64,000 nucleotides of DNA, from NCBI RefSeq assembly GCF_006345805.1, contig NW_021832404.1:22667-86666 (forward strand). The letters run 5' to 3'. A model generated the notes under the pieces. The model searched no databases. It saw nothing but the letters and a program-made list of their open reading frames with translations, and had not been told where the DNA came from. Shown here piece after piece: positions 1 through 63,293 of the stretch. Origin of the DNA: Octopus sinensis (lineage: Eukaryota). The position numbers were made by a program, and so were the translations under genes. Each line of letters opens with the position of its first letter. The stretch's first letter is position 1.

Positions 1-112
1 TCCTGACATTCCTGACATTCTAGACATTCCTGACATTCCAGACATTCCGAACATTCCAGACATTCCTGGCATTCCAGACATTCCTGACATTCCAGATATT
101 CCAGACATTCCT
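1..112 (+). repeat. 9-bp tandem array (GACATTCCW)n, truncated by the window start
   Basis: Repeated GACATTCCT/GACATTCCA units read directly; translates as poly-(PDI). Confidence 0.95.
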
Positions 113-116
113 CTTT

Positions 117-512
117 GCCGACAGAGATCAAAGAGGAGTACCGACAGAGATCAAAGAAGGTGCCGACAGAGATCAAAGAGGGTCCCCATAGAGATCAAAG
201 AGGGTGCCGACAGAGATCAAAGAGGAGTACCGACAGAGATCAAAGAAGGTGCCGACAAAGATCAAAGAGGTTGCCCACAGAGATCAAAGAAGGTGCCGAA
301 AGTGATCAAAGAGGAGTTCCGAAAAAGATCGAAGAGGAGTACCGAAAGAGATCAAAGAGGGTACCGACAGAGATCAAAGAAGGTACCGAAAGAGATCAAA
401 GAGGACTACCGAAAGAGATCAAAGAATGTGCCGACAGAGATTAAAGAGGGTGCCGAAAGAGATCAAAGAAGGGCCGACAGAGGTCAAAGAGGAGTACCGA
501 AAATGATCAAAG
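117..512 (+). repeat. 22/24-bp tandem array (GCCGACAGAGATCAAAGAGGGT, with GGAGTA variants), about 17-18 units
   Basis: Recurring RCCGAMAGAGATCAAAGA core with 22- or 24-bp spacing; followed by one inverted unit at ~519-542. Confidence 0.95.
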
Positions 513-542
513 CTGGTGTCTCTGTCGGCACCTCTGATCTCT

Positions 543-905
543 GACATTCCTCACATTATAAACATTCTTGACATTACAGGCATTCCTGACATTCCAGCCA
601 TTCCTGACATTACAGACATTCCTGACATTCCAGACATTCCTGACATTCCAGACATTCCTGACATTCCGAAAATTCCAGACATTCCTGACATTACTGGCTT
701 CCAGACATTCCTGACATTCCAGACATTCCTGACATTCCTGACATTCCTGACATTCCAGTCATTCCTGACATTCCACACATTCCTGACATTCCAGACATTT
801 CAGATATTACTGACATTCCAGACATTCCAGAAATCCTGATATTCCTGACATTCCTGACGTTCCAAACATTCCAGACATTCCTGACATCCAGACATTCCTG
901 ACATT
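543..905 (+). repeat. 9-bp tandem array (GACATTCCW)n
   Basis: About 40 GACATTCCW units with scattered substitutions. Confidence 0.95.
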
Positions 906-1104
906 TGAAACGGTTCGATATGGCTTGATCCAGTTGAACCGGTTTGATCTGGTTTGATCCGGTTTGAACCGATTTGATCTGGTTTGAACCGGTTTGATAC
1001 GGTTTGAACCGTTTTGATCCGGTTTGATCCGTTTCAACCGGTTTGATCCGGTTTGATCCGTTTTCAACCGGTTTGATCCGGTTTGAACCGGTTTAATCTG
1101 GTTT
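905..1104 (+). repeat. 10-bp tandem array (CCGGTTTGAW)n
   Basis: Repeated ccggtttgat/ccggtttgaa; followed by two inverted 22-bp units at ~1105-1148. Confidence 0.95.
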
Positions 1105-1148
1105 ATCGGCACCGTCTTTGATCTTTGTTGGCACACTCTTTGATCTCT

Positions 1149-1291
1149 GACATTCCTGACATTCCAGACATTCCTGACATTCCTGACATTCTAGACATTC
1201 CTGACATTCCTGACATCCAGACATTCCGAACATTCCAGACATTCCTGGCATTCCAGACATTCCTGACATTCCGAAAATTCCAGACATTCCT
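1149..1291 (+). repeat. 9-bp tandem array (GACATTCCW)n
   Basis: Near-identical to 1-112 at an offset of ~1179 bp. Confidence 0.95.
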
Positions 1292-1295
1292 CTTT

Positions 1296-1690
1296 GCCGA
1301 CAGAGATCAAAGAGGAGTACCGACAGAGATCAAAGAAGGTGCCGACAGAGATCAAAGAGGGTCCCCATAGAGATCAAAGAGGGTGCCCACAGAGATCAAA
1401 GAGGAGTACCGACAGAGATCAAAGAAGGTGCCGACAAAGATCAAAGAGGTTGCCCACAGAGATCAAAGAAGGTGCCGAAAGTGATCAAAGAGGAGTTCCG
1501 AAAAAGATCGAAGAGGAGTACCGAAAGAGATCAAAGAGGGTACCGACAGAGATCAAAGAGGTACCGAAAGAGATCAAAGAGGACTACCGAAAGAGATCAA
1601 AGAATGTGCCGACAGAGATTAAAGAGGGTGCCGAAAGAGATCAAAGAAGGGCCGACAGAGATCAAAGAGGAGTACCGAAAATGATCAAAG
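1296..1690 (+). repeat. 22/24-bp tandem array, second copy of 117-512
   Basis: Same diagnostic variants in the same order (gtccccatag, ttgcccacag, aagtgatc, gatcgaag, gattaaag, aaatgatc). Confidence 0.95.
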
Positions 1691-1720
1691 CTGGTGTCTC
1701 TGTCGGCACCTCTGATCTCT

Positions 1721-2085
1721 GACATTCCTCACATTATAAACATTCTTGACATTACAGGCATTCCTGACATTCCAGCCATTCCTGACATTACAGACATTCC
1801 TGACATTCCAGACATTCCTGACATTCCAGACATTCCTGACATTCCGAAAATTCCAGACATTCCTGACATTACTGGCTTTCCAGACATTCCTGACATTCCA
1901 GACATTCCTGACATTCCTGACATTCCTGACATTCCAGTCATTCCTGACATTCCACACATTCCTGACATTCCAGACATTTCAGATATTACTGACATTCCAG
2001 ACATTCCAGAAATCCTGATATTCCTGACATTCCTGACGTTCCAAACATTCCAGACATTCCTGACATTCCTGACATTCCTGACATT
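1721..2085 (+). repeat. 9-bp tandem array, second copy of 543-905
   Basis: Same variants (cacattataaacattcttg, ccagccattcc, ccgaaaattcc). Confidence 0.95.
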
Positions 2086-2265
2086 TGAACCGGTTCGATA
2101 TGGCTTGATCCAGGTTGAACCGGTTTGATCTGGTTTGATCCGGTTTGAACCGATTTGATCTGGTTTGAACCGGTTTGATACGGTTTGAACCGGTTTGATC
2201 CGGTTTGATCCGTTTCAACCGGTTTGATCCGGTTTCAACCGGTTTGATCCGGTTTAATCTGGTTT
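2086..2265 (+). repeat. 10-bp tandem array (CCGGTTTGAW)n
   Basis: Copy of 905-1104; inverted 22-bp linker follows at ~2266-2309. Confidence 0.95.
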
Positions 2266-2309
2266 ATCGGCACCGTCTTTGATCTTTGTCGGCACAAACG
2301 TTGATCTCT

Positions 2310-2601
2310 GACATTTCTGACATTCCAGACATTCCTGACATTTCAGACATTCCTGACATTCCAGACATTCCTTACATTCCAGACATTCCCGACATTCAAG
2401 ACATTCCAGACATTCCAGACATTCCTGACATTCCTGACATTCCAAACATTCCTGACATTCTAGTCATTCCTGACATTCCACACATTCCTGACATTCCAGA
2501 CATTTCAGATATTACTGACATTCCAGACATTTTAGAAATCCTGACATTCCTGACATTCCAAACATTCCAGACATTCCTGACATTCCTGACATTCCTGACA
2601 T
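2310..2601 (+). repeat. 9-bp tandem array (GACATTCCW)n
   Basis: Direct reading of units. Confidence 0.95.
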
Positions 2602-2743
2602 TTGAACCGGTTCGTTATGGCTTGATCCAGGTTGAACCGGTTTGATCTGGTTTGATCCGGTTTGAACCGATTTGATCTGGTTTGAACCGGCTTGATCCGG
2701 TTTGATCCGGTTTCAACCGGTTTGATCCGGTTTAATCCGGTTT
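2602..2743 (+). repeat. 10-bp tandem array (CCGGTTTGAW)n
   Basis: Third copy; inverted 22-bp linker follows at ~2744-2787. Confidence 0.95.
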
Positions 2744-2787
2744 ATCAGCACCGTCTTTGATCTTTGTCGGCACAAACTTTGATCTCT

Positions 2788-3028
2788 GACATTTCTGACA
2801 TTCCAGACATTCCTGACATTTCAGACATTCCTGACATTCCAGACATTCCTTACATTCCAGACATTCCCGACATTCCCGACATTCCCGACATTCCAGACAT
2901 TCCTGACATTCCAGACATTCCTGACATTCCTGACATTCCAAACATTCCTGATATTCTAGACATTCCTGATATTCCAGACATTCCTGACATTCCAGATATT
3001 CCTGACATTCCAGACATTCCAGAAATCC
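2788..3028 (+). repeat. 9-bp tandem array abutting the 58-bp satellite
   Basis: GACATTCCW units run directly into tgaacatttcagggagg at 3029. Confidence 0.95.
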
Positions 3029-6000
3029 TGAACATTTCAGGGAGGAGGATTTGAAGGTGAAGGTAAGGAATGGGAAGAAGGAATATTTAACATTCCAGGG
3101 AGGGGGATTTGAAGGTAAAGGGGAGGAATGGGAAGAAGGAATATTGATCATTCCAGAGAGAGGGATTTGAAGGTAAAGTGGAGGAATGGGAAGAAGGAAT
3201 ATTGAACATTCCAGAGAGGGGGATTTGAAGGTAAAGGGGAGGAAAGGGAAGAAGGAATATTGAACATTGCATAGGGGGGGTTTGAAGGTGAAGGGGAGGA
3301 ATGGGAAGAAGGAATACGGAACATTCCAGAGAGGGAGATTTCAAGGTAAATTGAGGAATTGGAAGGAGGAATATTGAACATTCCAGAGAAAGGGATTTAA
3401 AGAGAAAGGGGAGGAATGGGAAGAAGGAATATTGAACATTCCAGAGAGGGGGATTTGAAGGTAAAGGGGAGGAATGGGAAGAAGGAATATTGAACATTCC
3501 AGGGAGGAGGATTTGATGGTGAAGTTAAGGAATGGGAAGAAGGATTATTGAACATTCCAGAGAGGGGGATTTGAAGGGAAGGGGGAGGAGTGGGAAGATG
3601 GAATATTAAACATTCCAGAGAGGGGGATTTGAAGGTGAAGGGGAGGAAGGGGAGGAAGGAACATTGAACATTGCAGAGAGGGGGATTTGAAGATGAAGGG
3701 GAGGAATGGGAAGAAGGAATATTGAACATTCCAGAGAGAGGGATTTGAAGGTAAAGGGGAGGAATGGGAAGAAGGAATATTGAACATTCCAGAGAGGGGG
3801 ATTTAAAGGTGAAAGGGAGGAAGGGGTGGAAGGAATATTGAACATTCCAGAGAGGGGGATTTTGAAGGGGAAGGGGAGGAAGGGGAGGAAGGGATACTGA
3901 ACATTCCAGAGAGGGGGATTTGAAAGTGATCGTGAGGAAGGGGAGGAAGGAATATTGAACTTCCATCCGGGAGGGGGATTTGAAGGTGAAGGGGAGGAAG
4001 TGGAGAATGGAATACTTTACATTCCAGAGAGGGGGAATTGAAGGTAAAGGGGAGGAATGGGAAGAAGAGAATATTTAACCTTCAAGAGAGGGGGATTTGA
4101 AGGTGAAGGTAAGGAATGGGAGAAAGGAATATTGAACATTCCAGAGAGAGGGATTTGAAGGTAAAGTGGAGGAATGGGAAGAAGGAATATTGAACATTCC
4201 AAGAGGGGGATTTTGAAGGGGAAGGGGAGGAAGGGGAGGAAGGGATACTGAACATTCCAGAGAGGGGGATTTGAAAGTGATCGTGAGGAAGGGGAGGAAG
4301 GAATATTGAACATTCCAGGGAGGGGGATTTGAAGGTGAAGGGGAGGAAGTGGAGAATGGAATACTTTACATTCCAGAGAGGGGGAATTGAAGGTAAAGGG
4401 GAGGAATGGGAAGAAGGAATATTTAACCTTCAAGAGAGGGGGATTTGAAGGTGAAGGTAAGGAATGGGAGAAAGGAATATTGAACATTCGAGAGAGGGAT
4501 TTGAAGGTAAAGGTGAGGAATGGAAGAAGGAATATTGAACATTCCAGAGAGGGGGATTTGAAGGTAAAGGGGAGGAAGGGAAGAAGGAATATTGAACATT
4601 GCATAGGGGGTTTGAAGTGAAGGGGAGGAATGGGAAGAAGGAATACGGAACATTCCAGAGAGGGAGATTTCAAGGTAAATTGAGGAATTGGAAGGAGGAA
4701 TATTGAACATTTCAGAGAAAGGGACTTAAATGGAAAGGGGAGGAATAGGAAGAAGGAATATTGAACATTCCAGAGAGGGGGATTTGAAGGTAAAGGGGAG
4801 GAATGGGAAGAAGGAATATTGAACATTCCAGGGAGGAGGATTTGATGGTGAAGTTAAGGAATGGGAAGAAGGATTATTGAACATTCCAGAGAGGGGGATT
4901 TTGAAGGAAGGGGGAGGAGTGGGAAGATGGAATATTAAACATTCCAGAGAGGGGGATTTGAAGGTGAAGGGGAGGAAGGAACATTGAACATTGCAGAGAG
5001 GGGGATTTGAAGATGAAGGGGAGGAATGGAAGAAGGAATATGAACATTCCAGAGAGAGGGATTTGAAGGTAAAGGGGAGGAATGGGAAGAAGGAATATTG
5101 AACATTCCAGAGAGGGGGATTTAAAGGTGAAAGGGAGGAAGGGGTGGAAGGAATATTGAACATTCCAGAGAGGGGGATTTTGAAGGGGAAGGGGAGGAAG
5201 GGGAGGAAGGGATACTGAACATTCCAGAGAGGGGGATTTGAAGGTGATCGTGAGGAAGGGGAGGAAGGAATATTGAACATTCCAGGGAGGGGGATTTGAA
5301 GGTGAAGGGGAGGAAGTGGAGAATGGAATACTTTACATTCCAGAGAGGGGGAATTGAAGGTAAAGGGGAGGAATGGGAAGAAGGAATATTTAACCTTCAA
5401 GAGAGGGGGATTTGAAGGTGAAGGTAAGGAATGGGAGAAAGGAATATTGAACATTACAGAAAAGGGGATTTGAAGGTAAAGGGAAGGAATGGGAAGAAGG
5501 AATATTGAACATTCCAGTGAGGGGATTTAAAGGTAAAGGGGTGGAATGGGAAGAAGGAATATTGAATATTCCAGGGAGGAGGATTTGAAGGTGAAGGTAA
5601 GGAATGGGAAGAAGGAATATTGAACATTACAGAGAAGGGGATTTGAAGGTAAAGGGGAGGAATGGGAAGAAGGAATATTGAACATTCCAGAGAGGGGGAT
5701 TTGAAGGTAATGGGGAGGAATGGGAAGAAGGAATATTTAACCTTTCAAAGAGTGGGATTTGAAGGTGAAGGTAAGGAATGGGAAGAAGGAATATTGAACA
5801 TTCCAGGGAGGGGGATTTGAAGGTGATTGGGAGGAATGGGAAGAAGGAATATTGAACATTCCAGAGAGAGGGATTTGCAGGTAAAGTGGAGGAATGGGAA
5901 GAAGGAATATTGAACATTCCAGAGAGGGGATTTGAAGGTAAAGGGGAGGAATGGGAAGAAGGAATATTGAACATTCCATAGGGGGGATTTGAAGGTGAAG

Positions 6001-9000
6001 TGGAGGAATGGCAAGAAGTAATATTGAACATTTCAGAGAGGGGGATTTAAAGGTAAAGGGGAGGAATGGGAATAAGGAATATTCAACATTCCACAGAAGG
6101 GGATTTGAAGGTAAAGGGGAGGAATGGGGAGGAGGAATATTGAACATTCCAGAGAGGGAGATTTGAAGGTAAAGGCGAGGAATGGGAAGAAGGAATATTG
6201 AACATTCCAGAGAGGGGGATTTAAAGGGGAAGGTGAGAAATGGGAAGAAGGAATATTGAACATTCCAGAGAGGGAGATTTGAAGGTAAAGGGGAGGAATG
6301 GGAAGAAGGAATATTGAACATTCCAGAGAGGGGGATTTGAAGGCGAAGGGGAGGAAGTGGAGAATGGAATACTGAACATTCCAGAGAGGGGGAATTGAAG
6401 GTAAATAGGAGGAATGCGAAAAAGGAATATTGAACATTACAGAGAAGGGGATTTGAAGGTGAATTGGAGGTAGGGGTGGAAGGAATATTGAACATTCCAG
6501 AGAGGGGGATTTGAAGATGAAGGGGAGGAAGGGGAGGAAGGAATATTGAACATTCCACTGGGGGGATTTGAAGGTGAAGGTGAGGAATGGGAAAAGTAAT
6601 ATTAAACATTCCAGAGACGGAGATTTCAAGGTAAAGGGGATGAGTGGGAAGAAGGAATATTGAACATTCCAGAGAGGGGGATTTGAAGGTGAAAGGGATG
6701 AAGGGGAGGAAGGAATATTGAACGTTCCAGAGAGGGAGATTTGAAGGTGAAGGGGAGGAAGGGGAGGAAGGAATATTGAACATTCCAGAGAGTGGTATTT
6801 GAAAGTGGATAGGAGGATGCAGAGGAGGGAATACTGAACATTCCAGAGAGGGGGATTTGAAGGTGAAGGGGAGGAAGGGGAGGAAGGAATATTGAACATA
6901 CCAGAGAGGGGGATATGAAGGTGAAGGGGAGGAAGGGGGAAGGAATATTGAACATTCCACAGAGGGGGATTTGAAGGTAAATGGGAAGAATGGGAAGAAG
7001 GAATATTTAACATTCCAGGGAGAGGGATTTGAAGGTAAAGTGGAGGAATGGGAAGAAGGAATATTGAAGATTACAGAGAGGAGTATTTGAAGGTGAAGGG
7101 AAGGAATGGGAAGAAGGAATATTGAACATTACAGAGAAGGGGATTTGAAGGTAAAGGGGAGGAATGGGAAAAAGGAATATTCAACATTCCACAGAGGGGG
7201 ATTTGTAGGTGAAGGGGAGAAAGGGGAGGAAGGAAGACTGAACATTCCAGAGAGGAGGATTTGAAGGTAAAGTAAGGAATGGGAAGAAGGAATATCTAAC
7301 ATTCCAGAGAGGGGGATTTGAAGGTGAAGGTAAGGAATGGGAGAAAGGAATATTGAACATTCCAGGGAGTGGGATTTCAAGGTAAAGGGGAGGAATGGGA
7401 AGAAGGAATATTGAACATTCCAGAGAGGGGGATTTAAAGGTAAATGGGTGGAATGGGAAGAAGGAATTTTGAACATTCCAGAGAAAGGGATTTGAAGGTA
7501 AAGAGGAGGAATGGGAAGAAGGAATATTTAACCTTTCAAAGAGGGGGATATGAAGGCGAAGGTAAGGAATGGGAAGGAGGAATATTGTACATTCCATAGA
7601 GGGGGATTTGAAGGTAAAGGGGAGGAATGGGAAGAAGTAATATTGAAAATTGCAGAGAGGGGGATTTGAAGGTAAAGGGGAGGAATGGGAAGAAGGTATA
7701 TTGAACATTCCAGAGAGGGTGATTTGAAGGTAAAGGGGAGGAATGGGAAGAAGGAATATTGAACATTCCACGGAGGAGGATTTGAAGGTGAAGGTAAGGA
7801 ATGGGAAGAAGGAAAATTGAACATTACAGAGAAGGGGATTTGAAGGTAAATGGGAGGAATGGGAATAAGGAATATTCAACATTCCACAGAAGGGGATTTG
7901 AAAGTGAAGGTGAGGAATGGGAAGAAGGAATATTGAACATTCCAGAGAAGGGGATTTGAAGGTAAATGGGAGGAATGGGAATAAGGAATATTCAACATTC
8001 CACAGAAGGGGATTTGAAGGTGAAGGTGAGGAATGGGAAGAAGGAATATTGAACATTCCAGAGAGGGGGATTTGAAGGTGAAGGGGATGAATGTGAAGAA
8101 GGAATATTCAACATTCCAGAGAGGGGGATTTGAAGGTGAAGGGGAGGAAGAGGAGGAAGGAACATTGAACATTGCAGAGAGTGGGATTTGAAGATGAAGG
8201 GGAGGAAGGGGAGGAATGAATATTGAACATTCCAGAGAGGGGTATTTGAAGGTGAAGGGAGGAATGGAAGAAGGATATTCAACATTCCAGAGTGTAGTAT
8301 GTGAAGGTAAAGGGGAGGAATGGAAAAGGAATATTGAACATTCCAGAGAGGGGGATTTGAAGGTGAAGGGGAAGAAGGGAGGAAGGGATACTGAACATTC
8401 CAGAGAGGGGATTTGAAGGTGAATTGGAGGTAGGGGTGGAAGGAATATTGAACATTCCAGAGAGGGGGATTTGAAGATGAAGGGGAGGAAGGGGAGGAAG
8501 GAATATTGAACATTCCAGAGAGTGGTATTTGAAGGTAAACGGGAGGAATGGGAACAAGAAGTATTGAACATAACAGGAGGGGGATTTGAAGGTAAAGGGG
8601 AGGAATGGGAAGAAGGAATATTTAACGTTCCAGAGAGGGGGATTTAAGGTAAAAGGGTGGAATGTGAAGAAGGAATATTGAACATTCCAGAGAAAGGGAT
8701 TTGAAGGTAAGGGGAGGAATGGGAGAAGGAATATTGAACATTACAGGGAGGAGGATTTGAAGGTGAAGGGAAGGAATGGGTAGAAGGAATATTGAACATT
8801 CAGAGAAGGGGATTTGAAGGTAAAGGGGAGGAATGGGAAGAAGGAATATTCAACATTCCACAGAGGGAGACTTGAAGGTAAATGGGAGGAATGGGAAGAA
8901 GGAATATTTAACCTTTCAATGAGGTGGATTTGAAGGTGAAGGTAAGGAATGGGAAGAAGGAATATTGAACATGCCAGAGAGGGGGATTTGAAGGTAAAGG

Positions 9001-51000: not shown

Positions 51001-54000
51001 CATTCCAGAGAGGAGGATTTGAAGGTAAAGGGGAGGAATGGGAAGAATGAATGTTGAACATTCCAGAGAGGGGATTTGAAGTTGAAGGGGAGGAATAAGA
51101 AGGAATATTGAACATTCCAGAGAGGGGGATTTGAAGGTAAAGGGGAGGAATGGAAGAAGGAATATTGAACATTCCAGAGAGGGGATTTGAAAGCGAAGGG
51201 GAGGAAGGGGTGGAAGGAATATTCAACATTCCAGAGAGTGGGGATTTGAAGGTGAAGGGGGGAATGAATATTGACCATTCCAGAGAGGGGATTTGAAGGT
51301 GAAGGGGAGGAAGGGGGGGAAGGAATATTAAACATTCCAGAGAGGGGGATTTGAAGGTGAAGGGGAAGAAGTGGAGAAAGGAATACTGAACATTCCAGAG
51401 AGGGGGATTTGAAGGTAAAAAGGAGGAATGGGGAGAAGGAATATTTAACCTTCCAGGTAGGGGGATTTGAAGGTGAAGGTAAGGAATGGGAAAAAGGAAT
51501 ATTGAACATTCCAGGTAGGGGGATTTGAAGGTAAAGGGGAGGAATGGGAAGAAGGAATATTGATTATTCCAGAGATCGGGATAGAAAGGTAAAGGGGAGG
51601 AATGAGTTAAAGGAATATTGAACATTCCAGAGAGGAGGATTTGAAGGTGAATTGGATGAATGGGAAGAAGGAATATTGAACATTCCAGAGAGGGGGATTT
51701 GAAGGTGATGGGGAGGAAAAGGAGGAAGGAATATTGAACATTTCAGAGAGGGGGATTTGAAGGTGAATTGGAGGTAGGGGAGGAAGGAATATTGAACATT
51801 CCAGAGAGCGGGATTTGAAGGTGACGGGGAGGAAGGAATAATGAACATTCCAGAGAGGGGCATTTGAAGGTGAAGGGTGGAAAGGGAGGAAGGGATATTG
51901 AACATTCCAGAGAGGGGGATTTGAAGGTAAAGGGGAGGAATGGGAAAAACAATCTTGAACATACCAGAGGGGGGGATTTAAAGGTGAAGGGGAGGAAGGG
52001 TAGGGAGGAATATTGAACATTCCAGAGATTGGGATTTGAAGGTGAATGGGAGGAAGGGGAGGGAGGAATATTGAACATTCCAGGAGGGGGGTTTACGGTG
52101 AAGGGGAGGAAGGGGGCGGGGGAATATTGAACATTCCAGAGAGGGGATTTGAAGGTGAAGGGGGAAGGAATATATGAAACATTCCAGAGAGGGGGATTTG
52201 AAGGTGAAGGAGAGGAAGGCGTGGAAGGAATATTAAAATTCCAGAGGGGGGGATTTGAAGTTGAAGGGGAGAATGGATGAAGGAATATTCAACATTCCAG
52301 AGAGTGGGATTTGTAGCTAATGGGGAGGAATGGGTAGAAGGAATATTGAACATTCCAGAGGGGGGGGATTTTAGGTGAAGGGAAGGAATGTGAGAAGGAA
52401 TATTGAACATTCCAGAGAGGGGGATTTGAAGGTAAAGGGGAGGAATGGGATGAAGGAATATTGAACATTCCAGAGAGGGGGATTTTAAGGTGAAGGGGAG
52501 GAATGGTGAAGGTAAGGAATGGTGAAGGTGAAGGTAAGGAATATGGAACATTCCAGAGAGAGGGATTTGGAGGTGAAGGGGAGGTATGGGAAGAAGGAAT
52601 ATTGAACATTCCAGAGAGGTGGATTTGAAGGTAAATGGGCGGAATGGGAAGAAGGAATATTGAACATTCCAGAGAGGGGGATTTGAAGGTGAAAGAGAGC
52701 AATGGGAAGAATCAATATTGAACATTCCAGAGAGGGGGATTAGAAGGTTAAAGGGAGGAAGGGGAGGAAGGAATATTGAACATTCCAGAGAGGAGGATTT
52801 GAAGGTAAAGGGGAGGAATGGGAAGAAGGAATATTGAACATTCCTGAAAGGGGGATTTGAAGGTAATGGGGAGGAATGGGAAGAAGCAATATTGAACATT
52901 CCAGAGAGGGGGATTTGAAGGTGAAGGGGAGGAAGGGGAAGAAGGAATATTGAACATTCCAGAGAGTGGGATTTAAAGGTGAGGTGGAGGAATGGGAAGA
53001 AGGAATATTGAAAATTCCCGAGGGGGGGATTTGAAGGTGAAGGTGGGGAATGTGAAGAAGGAATATTGAACATTCCATAGAGGGGGATTTGAAGGTGAAA
53101 GGAGGAATGGGAAGAAGGAATATTGAACATTCCAAAGAGTGGGATTTGAAGTTGAATGGGTGGATTGGGAAGAAGGAATATTGAACATTCCAGAGAGGGG
53201 GATTTGAAGGTGAAGGTAAGGAATGGCGAAGGTAAGGAATGGTGAAGGTGAAGGTAAGGAATATTGAACATTCCAGAGAGAGGGATTTGGAGGTTAAGGG
53301 GAGGTATGGGAAGAAGGAATATTGAACATTCCAGAGAGGGGGATTTGAAGGTAAAGGGGCGGAATGGGAAGAAGGAATATTGAACATTCCAGAGAGGGGG
53401 ATTTGAAGGTGAATTGGATGAATGGGAAGAAGGAATATTGAACATTCCAGAGAGGGGGATTTGAAGGTGAATTGGAGGTAGGGGAGGAAGGAATATTGAA
53501 CATTCCAGAGAGCGGGATTTGAAGGTTACGGGGAGAAGGAATATTGAACATTCCAGAGAGGGGCATTTGAAGGTGAAGGGTGGAAAGGGAGGAAGGGATA
53601 TTGAACATTCCAGAGAGGGGGATTTGAAGGTAAAGGGGAGGAATGGGAAAAACATCTTGAACATACCAGAGGGGGGGATTTAAAGGTGAAGGGATGAAGG
53701 TAGGGAGGAATATTGAACATTCCAGAGATTGGGATTTGAAGGTGAATGGGAGGAAGGGGAGGGAGGAATATTGAACATTCAGAGAGGGGGGTTTACGGTG
53801 AAGGGGAGGAAGGGGGCGGGGAAATATTGAACATTCCAGAGAGGGGATTTGAAGGTGAAGGGGGAAGGAATATTGAACATTCCAGAGAGGGGGATTTGAA
53901 GGTGAAGGAGAGGAAGGCGAGGAAGGAATATTGAAAATTCCAGAGGGGGGGATTTTTGAAGTTGAAGGGGAGGAATGGGATGAAGGATATTCAACATTCC

Positions 54001-55840
54001 AGAGAGTGGATTTGTAGCTAATGGGGAGGAATGGGTAGAAGGAATTTTGAACATTCCAGAGGGGGGGGATTTTACGGTGAAGGGTGGAAGGGGAAGAAGG
54101 AATATTGAACATTCCAGAGAGGGGGTTTGAAGGTAAAGGGGAGGAATGGGATGAAGGAATATTGAACATTCCAGAGAGGGGGGATTTTAAGGTGAAGGGG
54201 AGGAATGGAATAAGGAATATTGAACATTCCAGAGAGGGGGATTTGAAGGTAAGGTAAGGAAGGGAAGAAGGAATATTGAACATTCCAGAGAGGGGGATTT
54301 GAAGGTGAAGTAAGGAATGGTGAAGGTAAGGAATGGTGAAGGTGAAGGTAAGGATATGGAACATTCCAGAGAGAGGGATTTGGAGGTGAAGGGGAGGTTG
54401 GGAAGAAGGATTATTGAACATTCCAGAGAGGTGGATTTGAAGGTAAAGGGGCGGATGGAAGAAGGAATATTGAACATTCCAGAGTGGGGGTTTGAAGGTG
54501 AAAGAGAGCAATGGGAAGAAGCAATATTGAACATTACAGAGAGGGGGATTAGAAGGTTAAAGGGAGGAAGGGGAGGAAGGAATATTGAACATTCCAGAGA
54601 GGAGGATTTGAAGGTAAAGGGGAGGAATGGGAAGAAGGAATATTGTACATTCCTGAGAGGGGGATTTGAAGGTAATGGGGAGGAATGGGAAGAAGGAATA
54701 TTGAACATTCCAGAGAGGGGGATTTGAAGGTGAAGGGGAGGAAGGGGAAGAAGGAATATTGTACATTCCAGAGAGTGGGATTTAAAGGTGAGGTGGAGGA
54801 ATGTGAAGAAGGAATATTGAAAATTCCAGAGGGGGGGATTTGAAGGTGAAGGTGGGGAATGTGAAGAAGGAATATTGAACATTCCATAGAGGGGGATTTG
54901 AAGGTGAAAAGGAGGAATGGGAAGAAGGAATATTGAACATTCCAAAGAGTGGGATTTGAAGTTGAATGGGTGGAATGGGAAGAAGGAATATTGAACATTC
55001 CAGAGAGGGGGAATTGAAGGTGAAGGTAAGGAATGGTGAAGGTGAAGGTAAGGAATATTGAACATTCCAGAGAGAGGGATTTGGAGGTGAAGGGGAGGTA
55101 TGCGAAGAAGGAATATTGAACATTCCAGAGAGGGGGATTTGAAGGTAAAGGGGCGGAATGGGAAGAAGGAATATTGAACATTCCAGAGAGGGGGATTTGA
55201 AGGTGAAAGAGAGCGATGGGAAGAAGCAATATTGAACATTCCAGAGAGGGGGATTAGAAGGTTAAAGGGAGGAAGGGGAGGAAGGAATATTGAACATTCC
55301 AGAGAGGAGGATTTGAAGGTAAAGGGGAGGAATGGGAAGAAGGAATATTGAACATTCCAGAGAGGGGGATTTGAAGGTGAAGGGGAGGAAGGGGAAGAAG
55401 GAATATTGAACATTCCAGAGAGTGGGATTTAAAGGTGAGGTGGAGGAATGTGAAGAAGGAATATTGAAAATTCCAGAGGGGGGGATTTGAAGGTGAAGGT
55501 GGGGAATGTGAAGAAGGAATATTGAACATTCCATAGAGGGAGATTTGAAGGTGAAAAGGAGGAATGGGAAGAAGGAATATTGAACATTCCAAAGAGTGGG
55601 ATTTGAAGTTGAATGGGTGGAATGGAAGAAGGAATATTGAACATTCCATACAGTGGGATTTGAAGGTGAAGGGGAGGAATAGGAAGAATGAATATTGAAC
55701 ATTCCATAGAGGGGGATTTGAAGGTGAAGGGGAAGAATGGGACGAAGGAATATTGAACATTAAATAGAGTTTGGATTTGAAGGTGAAGGGGAGGAATGGG
55801 AATAAGGAATATTGAACTTTCCAGAGAGGGAGATTTGGAG
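3029..55840 (+). repeat. 58-bp satellite array, about 900 units; consensus GAATATTGAACATTCCAGAGAGGGGGATTTGAAGGTRAAGGGGAGGAATGGGAAGAAG
   Basis: Unit counted as 58 nt; repeat-derived ORF starts recur at 58-bp steps (e.g. 17657, 17599); single orientation throughout; 45 of 58 consensus bases are purines on the + strand. Confidence 0.98.
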
Positions 55841-55842
55841 AT

Positions 55843-56211
55843 TTATAAAAGCTATAAATAGAAGCTATAAATAGAAGCTATAACTAGAAGCTATAAATAG
55901 AAGCTATAAATAGAAGCTATAACTAGAAGCTATAAATAGAAGCTATAAATAGAATCTATAAATAGAATCTATAAATAGAATCTATAAATAGAATCTATAA
56001 ATAGAATCTACAAATAAATAAATAAATAAATAAATAAATAAATACATAAATAAATAGAATCTATAAATAGAATCTATAAATAGAAGCTAAAAATAGAATC
56101 TATAAATAGAATCTATAAATAGAATCTATTAATAGAAGCTATAAATAGAAGCTATAAATAGAAGCTATAAATAGAAGCTATATATAGAAGCTATAAATAG
56201 AAGCTATAAAT
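55843..56211 (+). repeat. 13-bp tandem array (KCTATAAATAGAA)n with an internal (AAAT)n stretch
   Basis: Repeated gctataaatagaa/tctataaatagaa; interrupts the 58-bp satellite. Confidence 0.95.
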
Positions 56212-56460
56212 ATTGAACATTCAATAGAGGGGGATTTGAAGGTGAAGGGGAAGAATGGGAAGAAGGAATATTGAAAATTAAATAGAGTGGGATTTGAAGG
56301 TGAAGGGGAGGAATGGGTAGAAGGAATATTGAACATTCTAGAGAGGGAGATTTGGAGGTGAAGGGGAGGAATGGGAAGAAGGAATATTGAACATTCCATA
56401 GAGGGGGATTTGAAGATAAAGGGGAGGAATGGGAACAAGGAATATTTAACATTCCAGAGA
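56209..56460 (+). repeat. Terminal ~4.5 units of the 58-bp satellite
   Basis: aatattgaacat...gggatttgaaggtgaagggg units resume after the 13-bp array. Confidence 0.95.
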
Positions 56461-56541
56461 GTTCAGACATGCTCAAACCAGTTAAAACCGGTTCAAACTG
56501 GTTCAAAATGTTCAAACCGGTTGAAACCGGAACAAACCAGT

Positions 56542-56602
56542 TCAAACACTTTCATCAAACACTTTCATCAAACATTTTTCATCAGACATTTTCATCAAAC
56601 AT
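56542..56602 (+). repeat. 13-bp tandem array (AACAYTTTCATCA)n, block 1
   Basis: aaacactttcatc / aacatttttcatc / gacattttcatc units. Confidence 0.9.
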
Positions 56603-56750
56603 TAAACCGGTTCAAACCGGCTCAAACCGGATCAACCACATCAAACAAGTTCAAACCGGATCTAACCAATTCAAAACGGTTCAAACTGGTTCAAACCGGT
56701 TCAAACCGGTTCGAACCGGTTCAAACCGGTTCAAACCGGATCAAACCAGT

Positions 56751-56880
56751 TCAAACACTTTCATGAAACGTTTTTCATTAGACATTTTCATCAAACATTT
56801 TTCATCAGACATTTTCATCAGACATTTTCATCAAAAATTTTCATCAAACATTTTCATCAAACATTTTCATCAGACATTTT
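56751..56880 (+). repeat. 13-bp tandem array (RACATTTTCATCA)n, block 2, about 10 units
   Basis: Direct reading of units. Confidence 0.92.
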
Positions 56881-57032
56881 GATCCTGTTTGAACCGGTTT
56901 TATTCGATTTGTACCGGTTTGGTCCGGTTTAAACCGTATCAAACCAGTTCAAATTGGTTCAAACCGGTTCAAACCGGATCAAACCAGTTCAAACCGGTTC
57001 AAACTGGTTCAAACCGGTTCAAACTGGTTCAA

Positions 57033-57156
57033 ATCTATAAATAGTATCTATAAATAGAATCTATAAATAGAATCTATAAGTAGAATCTATAAATAGTATC
57101 TATAAATAGAATCTATAAATAGAATCTATAAATAAATAAATAAATAAATAAATAAA
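57033..57156 (+). repeat. 13-bp (TCTATAAATAGAA)n followed by (AAAT)n
   Basis: Direct reading of units. Confidence 0.93.
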
Positions 57157-57345
57157 ATATATATGCAAATTATAAATAGGCAATTATGTATATATATATG
57201 CAAATTATGTATATATATATATATGCAAATTATGTATATATATATGCAAATTATGTATATATATATGAAAATTATGTATATAAATATATGCAAATTATGT
57301 ATATATATATGTAAATTATGTATATATATATGCAAATTATGCATA
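57157..57345 (+). repeat. ~21-25-bp array (TA)n-TGCAAATTATG containing ATGCAAAT
   Basis: Six perfect ATGCAAAT (57163, 57198, 57223, 57244, 57288, 57330) plus ATGAAAAT and ATGTAAAT variants, separated by variable (TA)n. Confidence 0.9.
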
Positions 57346-58530
57346 TAGAATCTATAAATAGAATCTATCAATAGAATCTATAAATAGAATCTATAAATAG
57401 AATAAATAAATAAATAAATAAATAAATAGTATCTATAAATAGAATCTATAAATAGAATCTATAAATAGAATCTACAAATAGAATCTATAAATAGAATCTA
57501 TAAATAGAATCTATAAATAGAATCTATAAATAAATAAATAAATAAATAAATACAATCTATAAATAGAATCTATAAATAAATAAATAAATAAATAAATAAA
57601 TACTATCTATAAAAATAATCTATAAATAGAATCTATAAATAGAATCTATAAATAGAATCTATAAATAAATAAATAAATAAATAGAATCTATAAATAGAAT
57701 CTATAAATAGAATAAATAAATAAATAAATAAATAAATAGAATCTATAAATAGAATCTATAAATAGAATCTATAAATAGAATCTATAACTAGAATCTATAA
57801 ATAGAATCTATAAATAGAATCTATAAATAGAATCTATAAATAAATAAATAAATAAATGAATAAATAAATACATAAATAAATAAATAGAATCTATAAATAG
57901 AATCTATAAATAGAATCTATAAATAGAATCTATAAATAAATAAATAAATAAATGAATAAATAAATACATAAATAAATAAATAGAATCTATAAATAGAATC
58001 TATAAATAGAATCTATAAATAGAATAAATAAATAAATAAATAAATAGAATCTATAAATAGAATCTGTAAATAGAATCTATAAATAGAATCTATAAATAAA
58101 TACATAAATAAATAAATAGAATCTATAAATAGAATCTATAAATAAATAAATAAATAAATGAATAAATAAATACAGAAATAAATAAATAGAATCTATAAAT
58201 AGAATCTATAAATAGAATCTATAAATAGAATCTATAAATAAATAAATAAATAAATGAATAAATAAATACATAAATAAATAAATAGAATCTATAAATAGAA
58301 TCTATAAATAGAATAAATAAATAAATAAATAAATAAATAAATAGAATCTATAAATAGAATCTATAAATAGAATCTATAAATAGAATTTATAAATAGAATC
58401 TATAAATAAATACATAAATAAATAAATAGAATCTATAAATAGAATCTATTAATAGAATCTATAAATAAATAAAAATAAATAAATATATAGTATCTATAAA
58501 TAGAATCTATAAATAGTATCTATAAATAGA
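57346..58530 (+). repeat. Compound array of 13-bp TCTATAAATAGAA blocks alternating with (AAAT)n
   Basis: Direct reading; recurring higher-order block marked by aaatgaataaataaatacataaat. Confidence 0.95.
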
Positions 58531-58696
58531 TGTCAGGAATGTCAGGAATGTCTGGAATGTCAGGAATGTCAGGATTACCGGAATATCTGGAATGTCAGTA
58601 ATATCTGGAATGTCTGGAATGTCTGGAATGTCAGGAATGTCTGGAATGTCTGGAATGTCTGGAATGTCAAGAATGTTTGGAATGTGAGGAATGTCA
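58530..58696 (-). repeat. 9-bp array in inverted orientation (WGGAATGTC)n
   Basis: Reverse complement of the left-flank 9-bp array, including the cacatt..aaacattcttgac variant next to the junction. Confidence 0.95.
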
Positions 58697-60535
58697 GAGA
58701 TCAGAGGTGCCGACAGAGACACCATCTTTGATCATTTTCGGTACTCCTCTTTGATCTCTGTCGGCCCTTCTTTGATCCCTGTCGGCCCTTCTTTGATCTC
58801 TTTCGGCACCCTCTTTCATCTCTGTCGGCACATTCTCTGATCTCTTTCGGTAGTCCTCTTTGATCTCTTTCGGTACCTTCTTTGATCTCTGTCGGTACCC
58901 TCTTTGATCTCTTTCGGTACTCCTGTTTGATCCATTTCGGTACTCCTCTTTGATCACTTTCGGTACCTTCTTTGATCTCTGTGGGCACCCTCTTTGATCT
59001 CTGTCGGCACCTTCTTTGATCTCTGTCGGTACTCCTCTTTGATCTCTGTCGGCACCCTGTTTGATCTCTGTCGGTACCCTCTTTGATCTTTTTCGGTACT
59101 CCTCTTTGATCTCTGTCGGCAACCTCTTTGATCTCTGTCGGCACCCTCTTTGATCTCTTTCGGCACCCTCTTTGATATCTGTCGGCACCCTTTTTGATCT
59201 CTTTCGACACCCTTTTTGATCTCTGTAGGTCCTTCTTTGATCTCTTTCGGCACCCTCTTTGATCTCTGATAGAAAGAGATCAAAGAGGGTGCCGACAGAG
59301 ACCAAAGAGGAGTACCGAAAAATATATCTTTCGGTACTCCTCTTTCATCTCTGTCAGCACTATCTTTGATCTTTTTCGGTACTGCTCTTTGATCTCTGTC
59401 GGCACCCTCTTTGATCTTTTTCGGTACTCCTCTTTGATCTCTGTCGGCCCTTCTTTGATATCTTTCGGCACCCTCTTTGATCTCTGTCGGCACCCTCTTT
59501 GATATCTGTCGGCACCTTCTTCGATCTTTTTCGGTACTCCTCTTTCATCTCTTTCGGCACCCTCTTTGATCTATGTCGTCACACTCATTGATCTTTTTCG
59601 GTACTCCTCTTTGGTCTCTGTCGGCAACCTCTTTGATCTTTGTCGGCACCCTCTTTGATCTCTTTCGGCATCCTCTTTGATCCCTTTAGGTGCTCCTCTT
59701 TGATCTCTGTCGGCACCTTCTTTGATCTCTTTAGGTTCTCCTCTTTGATCTCTGTCGGTACTCCTCTTTGATCTATGTCGGCACTCTCTTTGATCTCTTT
59801 CGGTACTCCTCTTTGATCTCTGTCTGCACCCTCTTTGATCTCTTTCGATACTCCTCTTTGATCTCTGTCGGCACCCTGTTTGATCTCTTCCGACACTCTC
59901 TTTGATATCTCTCGGCACCCTCTTTGATCTCTGTTTGTCCCCTTTTTGATGTCTTTCGACTCCCTTTTTGTTCTCTGTCGGCACCCTCTTTGATGTCTTT
60001 CGACACCCTCTTTGATCTCTTTCGGCACCCTCTTTGATCTCTGTCGGTACTACCTTTGATCTCTTTAGGCACCCTCTTTGATGTCTGTCGGCACTCTCTT
60101 TGATATCTTTCGGGACTCTTCTCTGATCTCTTTCGGCACAATTTTTTATCTCTTTCGGCACCCTATTTGATCTCTTTCGGTGCCCTATTTCATCTCTGTC
60201 GGGACCCTTTTTGATCTCTTTCGGCACCCTCTTTGATCTTTTTCGGCACCCTCTTTTATCTCGGTCGGCACCCACTTTGATCTCTTTCGGTACTCCTCTT
60301 TGATATCTGTCGGCACCCTCTTTGATCTCTGTCGGCACCCTCTCTGATCTCTTTCGGCACCCTCTTTTATGTCTTTCTGTACTCCTCTTTGACCTCTTTC
60401 GGTACGCTCTTTGATGTCTGTCGGCACCCTTTTTGATCTCTTTCGGCACCCTGTTTAATGTCTTTCGGCGCACTCTTTGATCTCTTTCGGGACTCCTCAT
60501 TGATCTCTCTCGGGACTCTTTCATCTCTTTCGGCG
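58697..60535 (-). repeat. 22/24-bp array in inverted orientation (CTCTTTGATCTCTGTCGGCACC)n, about 80 units, with a micro-inversion at ~59272-59322
   Basis: Reverse complement of 117-512; units become more degenerate towards 60535. Confidence 0.95.
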
Positions 60536-61112
60536 TTTCATTCATTTCGTTTTCTAGCATATCACTCGCCTGCATGACGCTGGGTTTTCCGCTGCTCCGC
60601 TGCTGCATTAACTTTCGGGTAGTGCTCCATGATCTCTGGGCATCTGCAAACGAAACGTATTCCTCTTCCACAATTACCTCGTCGTCTTCACTTTCCACCG
60701 GCTCTTCGTTTTGCCTTACCTCCTTTGCTATTTCTTCTAGAGTGAAACATGTTGGACAATACAAGTGGCGGTAACTTGTATCAGATATTACTAATGATAC
60801 GAGGGGCCCGACAATAACATTTTTCGCAGCATCGATAATCTCCTTCTTTTCCTTCAGCGTAAACTCAGTTCGCTTGCGTTTCTGAGCTGACACTGTGCTA
60901 CTTTCTGAACTTTTCAGATACGAAATGTACAAAATGTAGGAGTACAAAATTTCGAAAAGTTGCTTGCGCTAATTTTACAAGTGGCATAGTAGCGTGAGTT
61001 GAGGGTGGCATAGTAAAATATTTTTGTTTATTATTTGGCCGGGATCGCGCAAAACTGGCATTGTAGTGAGAGTGGCATAGTAGCGAGGTAGCATAGTAGC
61101 GAGAGTTCACTG
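60536..61112 (-). mobile_element. Left end of a pogo/Tigger-like (Tc1/mariner superfamily) DNA transposon, internally deleted
   Basis: Minus strand reads TA|CAGTGAACTCTCGCTACTATGC from 61114/61112, i.e. a TA target plus a CAGT-type TIR. About five subterminal GCATAGTAG-like direct repeats lie at 60981-61103, followed by a transposase-like remnant. Family assigned from recalled features, not a database search. Confidence 0.75.
60538..60881 (-). pseudogene. Deleted Tigger/CENP-B-like transposase remnant (N-terminal HTH start joined to the acidic C-terminal tail; no DDE domain)
   Basis: KRKRTEFTLKEKKEIIDAAKN (60881-60819) resembles the CENP-B-type HTH N-terminus of pogo/TIGD proteins. TLEEIAKEVRQNEEPVESEDDEVIVEEEYVSFADAQRSW resembles their acidic C-terminal region. 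Only ~20 codons separate the two, so the catalytic core is missing. Confidence 0.7.
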
Positions 61113-61144
<32 letters not shown>

Positions 61145-61169
61145 ATATATATATATTTATATAGTGGCG

Positions 61170-61207
<38 letters not shown>

Positions 61208-61245
61208 ATATATATATATATATAATATATATATATATATATACA

Positions 61246-61304
<59 letters not shown>

Positions 61305-61313
61305 TATATATAT

Positions 61314-61381
<68 letters not shown>
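61113..61381. repeat. (TA)n microsatellite with (TC)n and (TACA)n interruptions
   Basis: Direct reading; the transposon end abuts this TA tract. Confidence 0.97.
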
Positions 61382-61944
61382 CAGGTTGTTTGTTATGACA
61401 GGTCATATATCTAGCATTTTTGATCAAACTATTTAATTTCACGTTGCTCCAGTCCATTCAAATGGCAAAATTAAGTAAGTCTGCGACGGACTAGTGTCCT
61501 CTCCACTGGTGGTAGACACTATTTACGTCACAGAATCCGGGAAACCGGCCTCATGAGTCTACGACACGGGAAAAACTTTTTTTGAAATCATCAGCTTCAC
61601 GAGCCTGGATTTAACAGATTTCGTATTTAACAGTGATCAGTTTAAACTCTATTTATTCCTCAGTGTAATACGCGTACCTCTGATCACGTGGTTACAACTG
61701 TTTTGGGTGGCGGTTTGTTTGTTACATTTTCCCGTGCAAAGAGAAAAACAAAAATCATTTTCAAAGAGATCAGGAAGTCACTGAAGAATTTTTTGATTTT
61801 TGGCTGGCATGGGTGGTTAAGAAATAGGATTGGTTGTCACAGCTGGTGGTGGCTTTCGAGTTAATTGATTTTTTAAATGTGTGTGTCTAAGAATGTTGTG
61901 TGATGAGACTAAATATTGTTTATTGTTTGTCTGTGCAAGAGGTG

Positions 61945-62105
61945 AGGAGAGAGAGAGAATGAGAAGGAGGGAGAGAGGGAATTCAGAGAAAGAAAGGGAG
62001 AAAGAGAGAAGAGAGAGAAAAAGAGGGAGAGAGAGAGAAGAGAGAGAGAGGAAGAAAGGGAGAGAGAAAAGAGAGTGAAAGAGAGGGAGAGAAAGAGGAG
62101 GGAAT
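61945..62105 (+). repeat. GA-rich low-complexity tract
   Basis: Degenerate (GA)n/(GAGG)n. Confidence 0.9.
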
Positions 62106-62188
62106 GGGTTACCGGCTATAGGACAATTGTATTTTATAAGGAAAGAATTTGATTTTAGAAAGAGAAATCCTCTACAAGGAAAGGATAA

Positions 62189-62440
62189 GGAAACAGAAGT
62201 GTTTATATAAATGAATAAATAAATATATAGAGAGATGTTTGTGTTCGTCCCACACCACTAGGTTATGTGTTTACACCTCCGTAACTTAGCGGTTCGGCAA
62301 AGGGACCGATAGAATAAGTACCAGGCTTAAAAAATAAGTTCTGGGGTCGATTCGTTGGTCTAAAATCCTTCAAGTCTGTGCCCCAGCATGACGGCAGTGC
62401 AATGACTGAAACAAGTAAAATTTAAGAGAAAATATAAAAG
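62189..62440 (+). mobile_element. SINE 3' portion resembling the abundant octopus tRNA-derived SINE family
   Basis: Contains gtgtttac..ccgtaacttagcggttcggcaaa..gaccgatagaataagtaccaggctt..ctggggtcgatt..ccagcatg..gcagt..aatgactgaaacaagtaaaa and an A-rich tail, matching my recollection of the octopus SINE consensus (not database-checked). Confidence 0.75.
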
Positions 62441-63073
62441 ATATGTTTAAAACCCCTATACACTAATCAAATTGCTTACAGAACTATGAACACCCGGAGA
62501 GAAACGTGTAAGCACAAAACCAAACTTTCCGCCTCTCTACATTATTTTGTGAAAAACAGTTGAGACACCGAATTGATAAAGGCTTAAATGCTGGACTTTG
62601 TACTTTTGACCATTATACTGTCAAAGCAAAGAGATTAAATCCAATAATACCAAAAGCAACGAAAATCCTATCACATTTTTGTGCCCACCTAACAAAAGAG
62701 AAACACATAAAGACTCGTTTACAACGTTCTATATGCGTGAATAAATTCTAAACAACACCATAACCCCAAGTTTAATAAATTAACATTTTTTTCAGAACAC
62801 CTTTCCATAACGACCGACCACAAAACTTAATTACCACTCCACTCAAACCCACACACCCAAAAGGGGATTTTAACTCAACCGAGACGAAATAAAGGCAAGA
62901 CTAACTCTAATACACCGCAGTTCGACACTGGCTTAGCTGGTCGAAACTTCGAAGTCACTATCAAGGAATTCTTGCATAAAAATAATAAATTTGTCCTCTA
63001 CAATAGTATTGAGCAATTCATCAGATTAATGTAGAATTGTTTTGATTATAACTGAACGTAAATATAAACAATA

Positions 63074-63160
<87 letters not shown>

Positions 63161-63198
63161 ATCTATCTATCTATCTATCTATATATATATATTATATA
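63074..63198. repeat. (TATC)n tetranucleotide microsatellite followed by short (TA)n
   Basis: About 27 TATC units. Confidence 0.97.
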
Positions 63199-63235
63199 CA
63201 TGTGGTTGGGAAGCAAGCTTCTTAACACACAGTCA

Positions 63236-63236
<1 letters not shown>
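63199..63236 (-). mobile_element. Short SINE 5'-head fragment
   Basis: Minus strand agtgactgtgtgttaagaagcttgcttcccaaccacatg resembles the tRNA-like head of the same SINE family as recalled. Confidence 0.5.

Positions 63237-63237
<1 letters not shown>

Positions 63238-63291
<54 letters not shown>
63238..63291. repeat. (TA)n microsatellite
   Basis: Direct reading. Confidence 0.97.

Positions 63292-63293
<2 letters not shown>

Follow-up and report, generated by a model that had tools for sequence, protein, structure and literature searches.

Satellites that spread by repair, and repeats crowded with binding sites for one transcription factor, have both been described. The Rsp-like and 1.688 satellites of Drosophila spread by inserting into another satellite via microhomology; the hybrid joins have formed more than once and been copied further afterwards, and the arrays grow locally by unequal exchange (PMC7403614). 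MORC3-restricted tandem-repeat enhancers carry homotypic clusters of SPI, AP-1 and SP/KLF motifs with up to 61 sites (PMC13373173), TEAD1 forms depots on pericentromeric clusters of MCAT motifs in cancer cells (PMC13335116), and Caenorhabditis Helitrons are mobile repeat DNA with dense clusters of heat-shock elements (HSEs) (PMC6927752). In cells using alternative lengthening of telomeres (ALT), targeted telomere insertion by NR2C/F has been reported for one cell line, and in the proposed mechanism a factor sitting on tandem repeats brings them to insertion loci (review PMC7073516). The 64,000 nucleotides analyzed here and called the window (Octopus sinensis contig NW_021832404.1, positions 22,667 to 86,666; G000:C8875:22,667-86,666) hold a composite of tandem arrays whose units resemble transcription factor sites. 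The window is a large representative of a dispersed family of minisatellite arrays without genes. It has close to an even chance of consisting of satellites copied by break repair and filtered for factor binding; being bound by signaling proteins may help junk DNA spread.

The octopus arrays share with the Rsp-like satellites their dispersed clusters, their microhomology insertion into other satellites and their re-copied joins. Rsp-like and 1.688 are two long-unit families with demonstrated extrachromosomal circular DNA, and their units are not claimed there as factor sites (PMC7403614), whereas the octopus arrays comprise at least 12 short-unit families. MORC3-restricted enhancers are individual elements of shown function (PMC13373173), unlike the octopus arrays, which are multi-locus, hold up to hundreds of sites per array and place different pathways in one block. 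TEAD1 depots likewise gather TEAD motifs in repeat DNA but concern one factor at pericentromeres of cancer cells (PMC13335116), whereas here the unit is itself a double site and the arrays are dispersed, with mixed motifs. The Caenorhabditis Helitrons are transposon-borne and serve one factor (PMC6927752), whereas no carrier ends lie at the octopus array borders searched. NR2C/F insertion is somatic and telomeric (PMC7073516); the octopus arrays are fixed in the germ line, their units are non-telomeric, and bridging by a factor would apply by analogy. Each ingredient has precedent, and a multi-family, carrier-free set in which every unit resembles the optimal site of a different signaling factor, joined in composites, was not found in the literature searched; subscription papers and supplementary repeat libraries aside, nothing was found on such arrays in octopus or other molluscs.

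Arrays were mapped with Tandem Repeats Finder (TRF) and by direct reading of the sequence letters. A preliminary description of this DNA had proposed seven distinct tandem units stitched together, and all seven are present: units of 9 bp, 22/23 bp, 10 bp and 58 bp, a 13-bp unit with a MEF2 box, a 21-bp octamer unit and a second 13-bp unit, TGATGAAAA. The motif matches as a whole hold up on re-reading, and the 9-mer and 22/23-mer reproduce published binding geometry beyond the core. Arrays of the 9-bp unit GACATTCCW lie at 1..111, with TEAD double-site geometry and running on upstream of the window, at 541..905 and, on the reverse strand, at 58530..58697 (other arrays are on the forward strand unless stated). 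In tandem the 9-mer reads CATTCC-NNN-CATTCC, with a 3-bp spacer, and neighboring CATTCC words stand 9 bp apart in 437 of 629 pairs at 10 loci. This arrangement is an enriched, functional TEAD double site (PMC4546604), so that the TEAD match is stronger than had been claimed.

The 22/23-bp unit, arrayed at 116..512, again at 1295-1690 and, on the reverse strand, at 58720..60534, joins a TCF HMG site to a Helper, RCCGAnW, through a spacer of 5/6 bp. The Helper follows 1,886 of 2,524 perfect HMG sites (spacer 5 in 1,645, spacer 6 in 241), and a pure 23-bp array lies at C2:3.385 Mb. In worms the Helper consensus reads GCCRAnW, and in the unit of the POPHHOP reporter 6 bp separate the HMG site from the Helper that comes after it (PMC3916239). 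In vertebrates the Helper is RCCG, and one of the best-bound layouts has the Helper upstream of the HMG site, at spacing 6 by the source's own count (PMC4154663). Helper orientation, spacing and worm consensus all fit the 22-mer, and its TCF/LEF assignment likewise exceeds the original claim. The order of HMG site, purine-rich spacer and Helper is that of POPHHOP/TOPflash (PMC3916239); POPHHOP's spacer length is that of the 23-bp variant, the octopus family's commonest being 5 bp. The reporters are synthetic, whereas the octopus arrays are natural, diverged and run to hundreds of copies, and dense perfect clusters of the reporter kind are reported to be absent from endogenous Wnt elements (PMC3916239).

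The largest array is a purine-rich 58-bp satellite at 3029..55837 (about 860-900 copies, about 86% of the window), whose conserved half bears a near-perfect HSE overlapping a TEAD site. Its higher-order periods, near 2.3, 4.6, 6.8-7.0 and 21-24 kb, point to ordinary local growth after arrival. In the composite of about 60 kb, against 200 kb of control, TEAD double sites number 98 vs 0, HMG plus Helper 53 vs 0, Grainyhead (GRH) sites 25 vs 0, HSEs 527 vs 2 and MEF2 boxes 130 vs 24. The motif labels MEF2, octamer, HSE, CARE (C/EBP-ATF response element), STAT, ETS, AP-1, CSL and Onecut are those that we take to apply. The HSE consensus is also given by PMC6927752. The period of the 10-mer agrees with CNRG-N5/6-CNRG, 10 bp corresponding to CNRG-N6-CNRG, and its sequence with AACCGGTT, a site in which the outer C and G matter most (PMC5829564).

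A search of the 2.72-Gb assembly (13,516 contigs) found that all six units searched recur elsewhere, often re-joined into new composites. The 22-mer occupies at least 30 distinct places among the matches listed (37 of 208 candidates scored), and the 10-mer/13-mer block, the octamer unit and the 9-mer occupy many places each; the 58-mer, not searched on its own, was met at C14, C11044, C8 and C11. Triples of the TCF site number 5,673 vs 1 for the reversed control and triples of the MEF2 box 875 vs 1, in overlapping counts that are positive by construction for both. Twenty loci picked on the 22-mer have sharp borders and unrelated flanks (unique DNA, short interspersed elements (SINEs), a miniature inverted-repeat transposable element (MITE), telomeric repeats and other satellites). 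No terminus is shared across their 40 flanks, where only host repeats or local duplicates are common to borders, nor among 22 further outer borders except for one pair 15 kb apart. The array at L067 sits inside a SINE: among 57 flank pairs, 48 have a gap of 1-2 bp, without target-site duplication, and it is the only one of 28 arrays tested with both flanks collinear in many other copies. At L073 a single transposase-like frame supplies both flanks, its middle on one side and its end on the other.

Arrays abut one another far more than rarity allows. Another satellite type is abutted in 8 of the 20 22-mer loci (L068, L069, L071, L073, L079, L080, L081, L082), whereas 0 of 20 MITE-centered control loci (200 kb) contain any of these arrays. 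Just two TTAGGG arrays occur in about 906 kb, each of them next to a 22-mer array. A junction census of 25 stretches gave 20 pair types; joins of 9-mer to 22-mer alone number 27 in 8 loci, in about 15 rough classes. The joins show microhomology of 1-9 bp and are often accompanied by small inversions, and whole composite modules have been copied anew, joins included. Some joins are common to the window, C14 and C11044, and the window's join at 512-541 is seen again inverted at about 58,697-58,730. The locus is one of many composites made by repeated copying, not a single designed hub. Exact matches between loci reach 132 bp (median 47); as proof of a common donor such strings are uninformative, since they can be runs of the commonest unit. 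Both flanks are common to L076 and L078, whose array was evidently copied together with its surroundings, and the upstream flank is shared by L074 as well. The sequences on either side of the L070 22-mer array duplicate one another in inverted orientation (92% over 447 bp). The TTAGGG arrays, at L080:6347-6542 and L082:7576-9058, are interstitial, and the strand polarity is the same in both.

Constraint on the motifs was assessed from units aligned without motif anchoring, by setting one-off substitutions against variants that a locus had amplified (to no fewer than 3 copies and 8%); a distinct-allele version counted each amplified allele once, to blunt shared descent. For the 22-mer (20 loci, about 2,374 units), singletons fell 96 times in the HMG core and 124 outside it, amplified variants 10 and 78 times (p=2.7e-8); with HMG and Helper together as the core, the counts were 138/82 and 19/69 (p=5e-11). 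One-off mutations are evenly spread, and amplified variants avoid HMG and Helper positions. Per-locus values were p=0.012 for the 10-mer, 0.024 for the TGATGAAAA 13-mer, 0.056 for the 58-mer and 0.079 for the 9-mer. At the per-locus level, the expectation that motifs are better conserved than spacers holds for the 22-mer, is weakly borne out for the 10-, 9- and 58-mers and the TGATGAAAA 13-mer, and is not borne out for the octamer unit. The positions that vary freely coincide with degenerate ones: the W of the 9-mer, the Helper's R and n, the CG at the center of the 10-mer and the spacer of the MEF2 unit. In the MEF2 13-mer, box positions are kept at 0.93-0.99 and spacer positions at 0.87, 0.96 and 0.87. 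CpG is intact in the Helper (0.96/0.96) and decayed and tolerated in the 10-mer (0.76/0.84).

The favored explanation would have two steps. Arrays would move by templated insertion at breaks, through microhomology-mediated template switching whose source would be another locus or an extrachromosomal circle; once in place, they grow by ordinary local duplication. The success of a unit would next be filtered by transcription factor binding: optimal, cooperatively spaced sites (TEAD double, TCF HMG plus Helper, CP2/GRH, MEF2, HSF, STAT/ETS) would stay accessible and join shared factor hubs, and arrays that are open and gathered in hubs, nearer to a break or to another array, would be copied more often. 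The benefit would fall to the repeat, with no benefit to the host required. The co-clustering and the position of both TTAGGG arrays invite an indirect likeness to NR2C/F insertion. In its strongest form, which we regard as possible but doubtful, this would be selfish DNA with neither gene nor ends, whose sole "trait" is an ideal multimerized site, gathered by factor hubs and copied by break repair. The proposal that these satellites were selected or amplified as factor-binding platforms gains support at the level of sequence only.

The foremost alternative, though we consider it unlikely, is chance with structural bias: microhomology repair would spread ordinary satellites, units that are palindromes or stem from microsatellites would amplify readily and look by accident like sites of dimeric factors, and the look-elsewhere effect over hundreds of motifs would do the rest. 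The 10-mer, the MEF2 unit, the 58-mer head and the STAT-like unit are indeed palindromic or nearly so, the MEF2 unit grades into (AAAT)n, the octamer unit into (TA)n, and the TGATGAAAA and 10-bp units into a phased A-tract repeat. The comparison with shuffled units that had been called for shows each unit's own motif to be rare by chance (P = 0.0012-0.010 per unit); any of 22 panel motifs turns up with a probability of 0.025-0.038, or 0.129 for the 58-mer. The panel was picked after the units had been seen, the STAT/ETS and Onecut motifs entering after sight of the corresponding units, and the estimate was therefore scaled to 100/300/600 motif classes. On this scale, which excludes spacing geometry, all seven units match by chance with P = 3e-6 / 1.7e-3 / 0.04, and four units with independent cores with P = 4e-4 / 0.017 / 0.12. 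A TTTGAW core is common to four units and a ACATTCCAG core is also shared between units; given the former and the grading into the A-tract repeat, seven matches are fewer than seven independent events.

Several further observations weigh against binding as the filter. Because cores are shared, microhomology alone may cause part of the clustering. CARE (9 in about 60 kb vs 40 in the 200-kb control) and loose CP2 sites (101 vs 177) are not clearly enriched; the TGATGAAAA 13-mer exists as described, but its ATF-like motif is not enriched and the A-tract repeat into which it grades is motif-less. Notch-site arrays were predicted, but Notch-site triples are not enriched (215 vs 394 in the control), and the search showed that many single-locus minisatellites hold a 7-mer by chance. 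The phased A-tract 12/13-mer, a 32-mer, a 13-mer at L162 and TTAGGG all abut the arrays and match no nameable motif. By distinct alleles the 22-mer contrast weakens (HMG 7/21, p=0.068; HMG plus Helper 11/17, p=0.023) and that of the 10-mer (p=0.73), TGATGAAAA 13-mer (0.65), 58-mer (0.82) and 9-mer (0.42) vanishes. The octamer unit has no contrast between motif and spacer in either version (p 1/1), the ATF-like 13-mer and the POU unit show little or no motif-specific constraint, and in an 18-mer (184 units) the spacer is as well conserved as the MEF2 box. G/C positions are more variable than A/T positions in several units, the HMG site is imperfect in 300 of 1,514 units flanked by intact Helpers, and at L165:3312-3692 a 22-mer variant with HMG and Helper both broken has been amplified to about 17 copies. 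Conversely, chance does not readily account for the TEAD double spacing or the bipartite HMG plus Helper unit, neither of which is a palindrome, for flat singletons beside core-avoiding amplified variants in the 22-mer, for intact Helper CpG beside decayed 10-mer CpG, or for three MEF2-box units with spacers of 3, 8 and 10 bp.

A second alternative, to which we give slightly less credence than to chance, is that the host selected the arrays as depots or mega-enhancers that store or buffer TEAD, TCF, MEF2, HSF and other factors or boost nearby genes. It draws on the same motif and constraint evidence as filtering for factor binding, and its precedents are TEAD1 on clustered MCAT (PMC13335116) and tandem-repeat enhancers with homotypic motifs (PMC13373173). 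The arrays, however, have no common setting, being found within SINEs, MITEs, transposase remnants and telomeric repeats, and vary in size and order; predicted non-binding variants expand locally; and no gene turned up in the 22 kb upstream by repeat scan, which was not a search aimed at genes.

Third, and improbable in our view, the units may be inherited enhancer pieces, cut from a transposon or virus regulatory region with optimal sites and then expanded neutrally. This would explain optimal geometry without continuing selection, and Caenorhabditis Helitrons with tandem HSEs are a precedent (PMC6927752). Against it, core-avoiding amplified variants are left unexplained, no border has a common terminus, no Helitron/Helentron or retroelement ends occur at the 40 flanks or the 22 outer borders, and a 22-mer dimer has 0 matches in viral and 0 in metagenome contigs, which also disposes of a viral or metagenome origin.

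Nor is the adjoining MITE a carrier. The composite had been given as 1..61112; it does fill the window to 60,534, but begins about 4.1 kb upstream (G000:C8875 about 18,545), abruptly, in non-repeat DNA, and 60535..61112, on the reverse strand, is the 5' 580 bp of an unrelated MITE, outside the array family and recognized from genome matches and terminal inverted repeats (TIRs). This MITE has at least 47 genome matches (40 of 128 candidates scored). All 20 copies compared have both TIRs, measure 807-904 bp and are array-free, with TA on both sides in 18. The composite has a TIR at its right end only, none being found in 24 kb upstream, and a genome-wide search by exact or 1-mismatch pattern found no join of array to the MITE's 3' half and only one 5' join elsewhere, of the L072 type. 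Array-free copies, one-sided TIR and the missing 3' join rule out the MITE as carrier. The window and L072 copies pass into the 22-mer at the same 9-bp word common to MITE and unit. They differ from consensus at 25 and 17 positions, with 0 derived substitutions in common; the MITE is a bystander, struck twice via microhomology. The 22-mer was also considered as a coding repeat, but its open frames are by-products of a non-triplet repeat, and as a derivative of the MITE reading frame, with which it has only the Helper-like 9 bp in common. The MITE copies at L045-L064 are abundant and young, with 16-17-bp subterminal repeats and an internally deleted transposase frame whose start and end are kept. 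With 25 and 17 differences, the array-joined copies (60535-61112; L072:8600-9157) have diverged more from consensus than have the 20 plain copies (4-16); error-prone repair synthesis or age may be the cause. A Pfam scan of the MITE fragment returned no significant family; from its TIRs, TA flanks and general resemblance, we take the element to be pogo/Tigger-like.

Assembly artefact or synthetic reporter contamination, which the small unplaced contig (86.7 kb) and the reporter-like units might suggest, is very improbable, given diverged units (739 variants among 2,474 22-mer units) on many chromosome-scale contigs, inserted in native repeats, and six public runs from 4 studies with 3 organism labels that hold 0.22-0.39 of the sampled words of 55840-61112. 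These six are the runs with shares of at least 0.2 among 15, from 7 studies, that hold part of this segment, and one run is possibly the assembly's source; no RNA run is among those counted.

Within the window, mosaics of the short units flank the 58-mer block on either side. On the left, a 10-bp array with a Grainyhead/CP2 site, which a degenerate TCF core also fits, lies at 904..1104. A second 9-mer/22-mer/9-mer/10-mer module, a local duplication of about 1.18 kb that includes the second 22/23-bp block, follows at 1147..2265, and 9-mer/10-mer/9-mer blocks with short inverted 22-mer remnants at their joins at 2308..3036. On the right, 13-bp MEF2-box arrays occur at 55845..56212 and 57347..58530, both with (AAAT)n runs (slippage in the former), and at 57032..57170. 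Between them lie a short 58-bp block of 4.4 copies (56209..56461), alternating 10-bp and 13-bp (TGATGAAAA) blocks with local inversion and no single strand (56473..57033), whose join series is found again at G000:C14 52.3 Mb and C11044, and eight copies of the 21-bp octamer unit, ATGCAAAT in a TA-rich unit (57171..57347). The 22/23-bp array already described is the composite's right end. Positions 61113-64000 hold TA, GA and ATCT microsatellite runs and SINE-like pieces, an ordinary background; in its SINEs and microsatellite load the window has an octopus-like appearance.

Further arrays lie beside the known ones, in sequence not used to form the idea. The 18-mer and a 20-mer (32 units tallied), at L157:1-9202 and L159:6983-7551, stand beside the 13-mer and keep the MEF2 box with other spacers; the 20-mer spacer also resembles a forkhead site. 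At L129 the TGATGAAAA array adjoins a 52-mer in which STAT- and ETS-like sites overlap; the 52-mer belongs to a 21/52/73-bp satellite (L129:968-3292, 8367-9681) with overlapping STAT-, ETS- and Rel-like words, one end of which is close to a small number of telomere-like repeats. The L079 array is surrounded by a 27-mer that contains Onecut-like and NFI-half-like words and is part of a 26/27-bp satellite (L079:272-2918, 7501-10000) hosting an inserted 22-mer/9-mer block. A TGACGT-rich degenerate 10/25-bp repeat, putatively CRE (cAMP response element)/bZIP-like, is always beside 9-mer arrays (L161:3060-3400; L164:3290-3575) and also occurs at borders of L162 and L163. AP-1 triples number 698 vs 165 in the control, a few arrays dominating among the matches listed; stand-alone 29-bp and 18-bp AP-1-site arrays lie at G000:C1:129,002,317-129,003,996 and L156:1506-1761, and the latter does not abut window-type arrays. 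The phased A4-5T4 satellite, with a 12-13 bp period, occurs at L073:985-2405 and 7612-9290, L126:4450-5420, L121:3400-4870 and L158:7187-8193, is interleaved with the 32-mer, and resembles periodic An/Tn clusters discussed elsewhere (bioRxiv 10.64898/2026.08.08.743475). The 13-bp unit at L162:1-1106 has TTGGC half-sites, a CTATTTGG word and inversions, and abuts the 22-mer. Two related 70-bp repeats with a CGCCATGGCG word lie at L012:4718-4905 and L154:2286-2818, one of them abutting an octamer array.

These arrays bear on the question of why particular short sequences succeed as satellites. Within a single genome, at least five to eight units that are unrelated, or related only loosely, look like optimal signaling-factor sites, and one, the 22-mer, has a measurable amplification bias against motif-breaking variants; together these make it possible to test directly whether satellite units are selected by protein binding. 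Every array can serve as a reporter as it stands, and predicted non-binding variants occur naturally as controls, the L165 variant being a natural negative control. If bound in vivo, the arrays would be the densest natural clusters of Wnt, Hippo, MEF2 and heat-shock elements in the genome, and would distort motif analyses from chromatin immunoprecipitation and ATAC and possibly factor dosage. If the selfish-site reading is true, the germ line would be running a natural binding-site selection experiment, the arrays would report the optimal sites and cooperative spacings of factors active in the germ line or early embryo, and they could titrate or rewire Wnt, Hippo, MEF2, heat-shock and STAT/ETS signaling.

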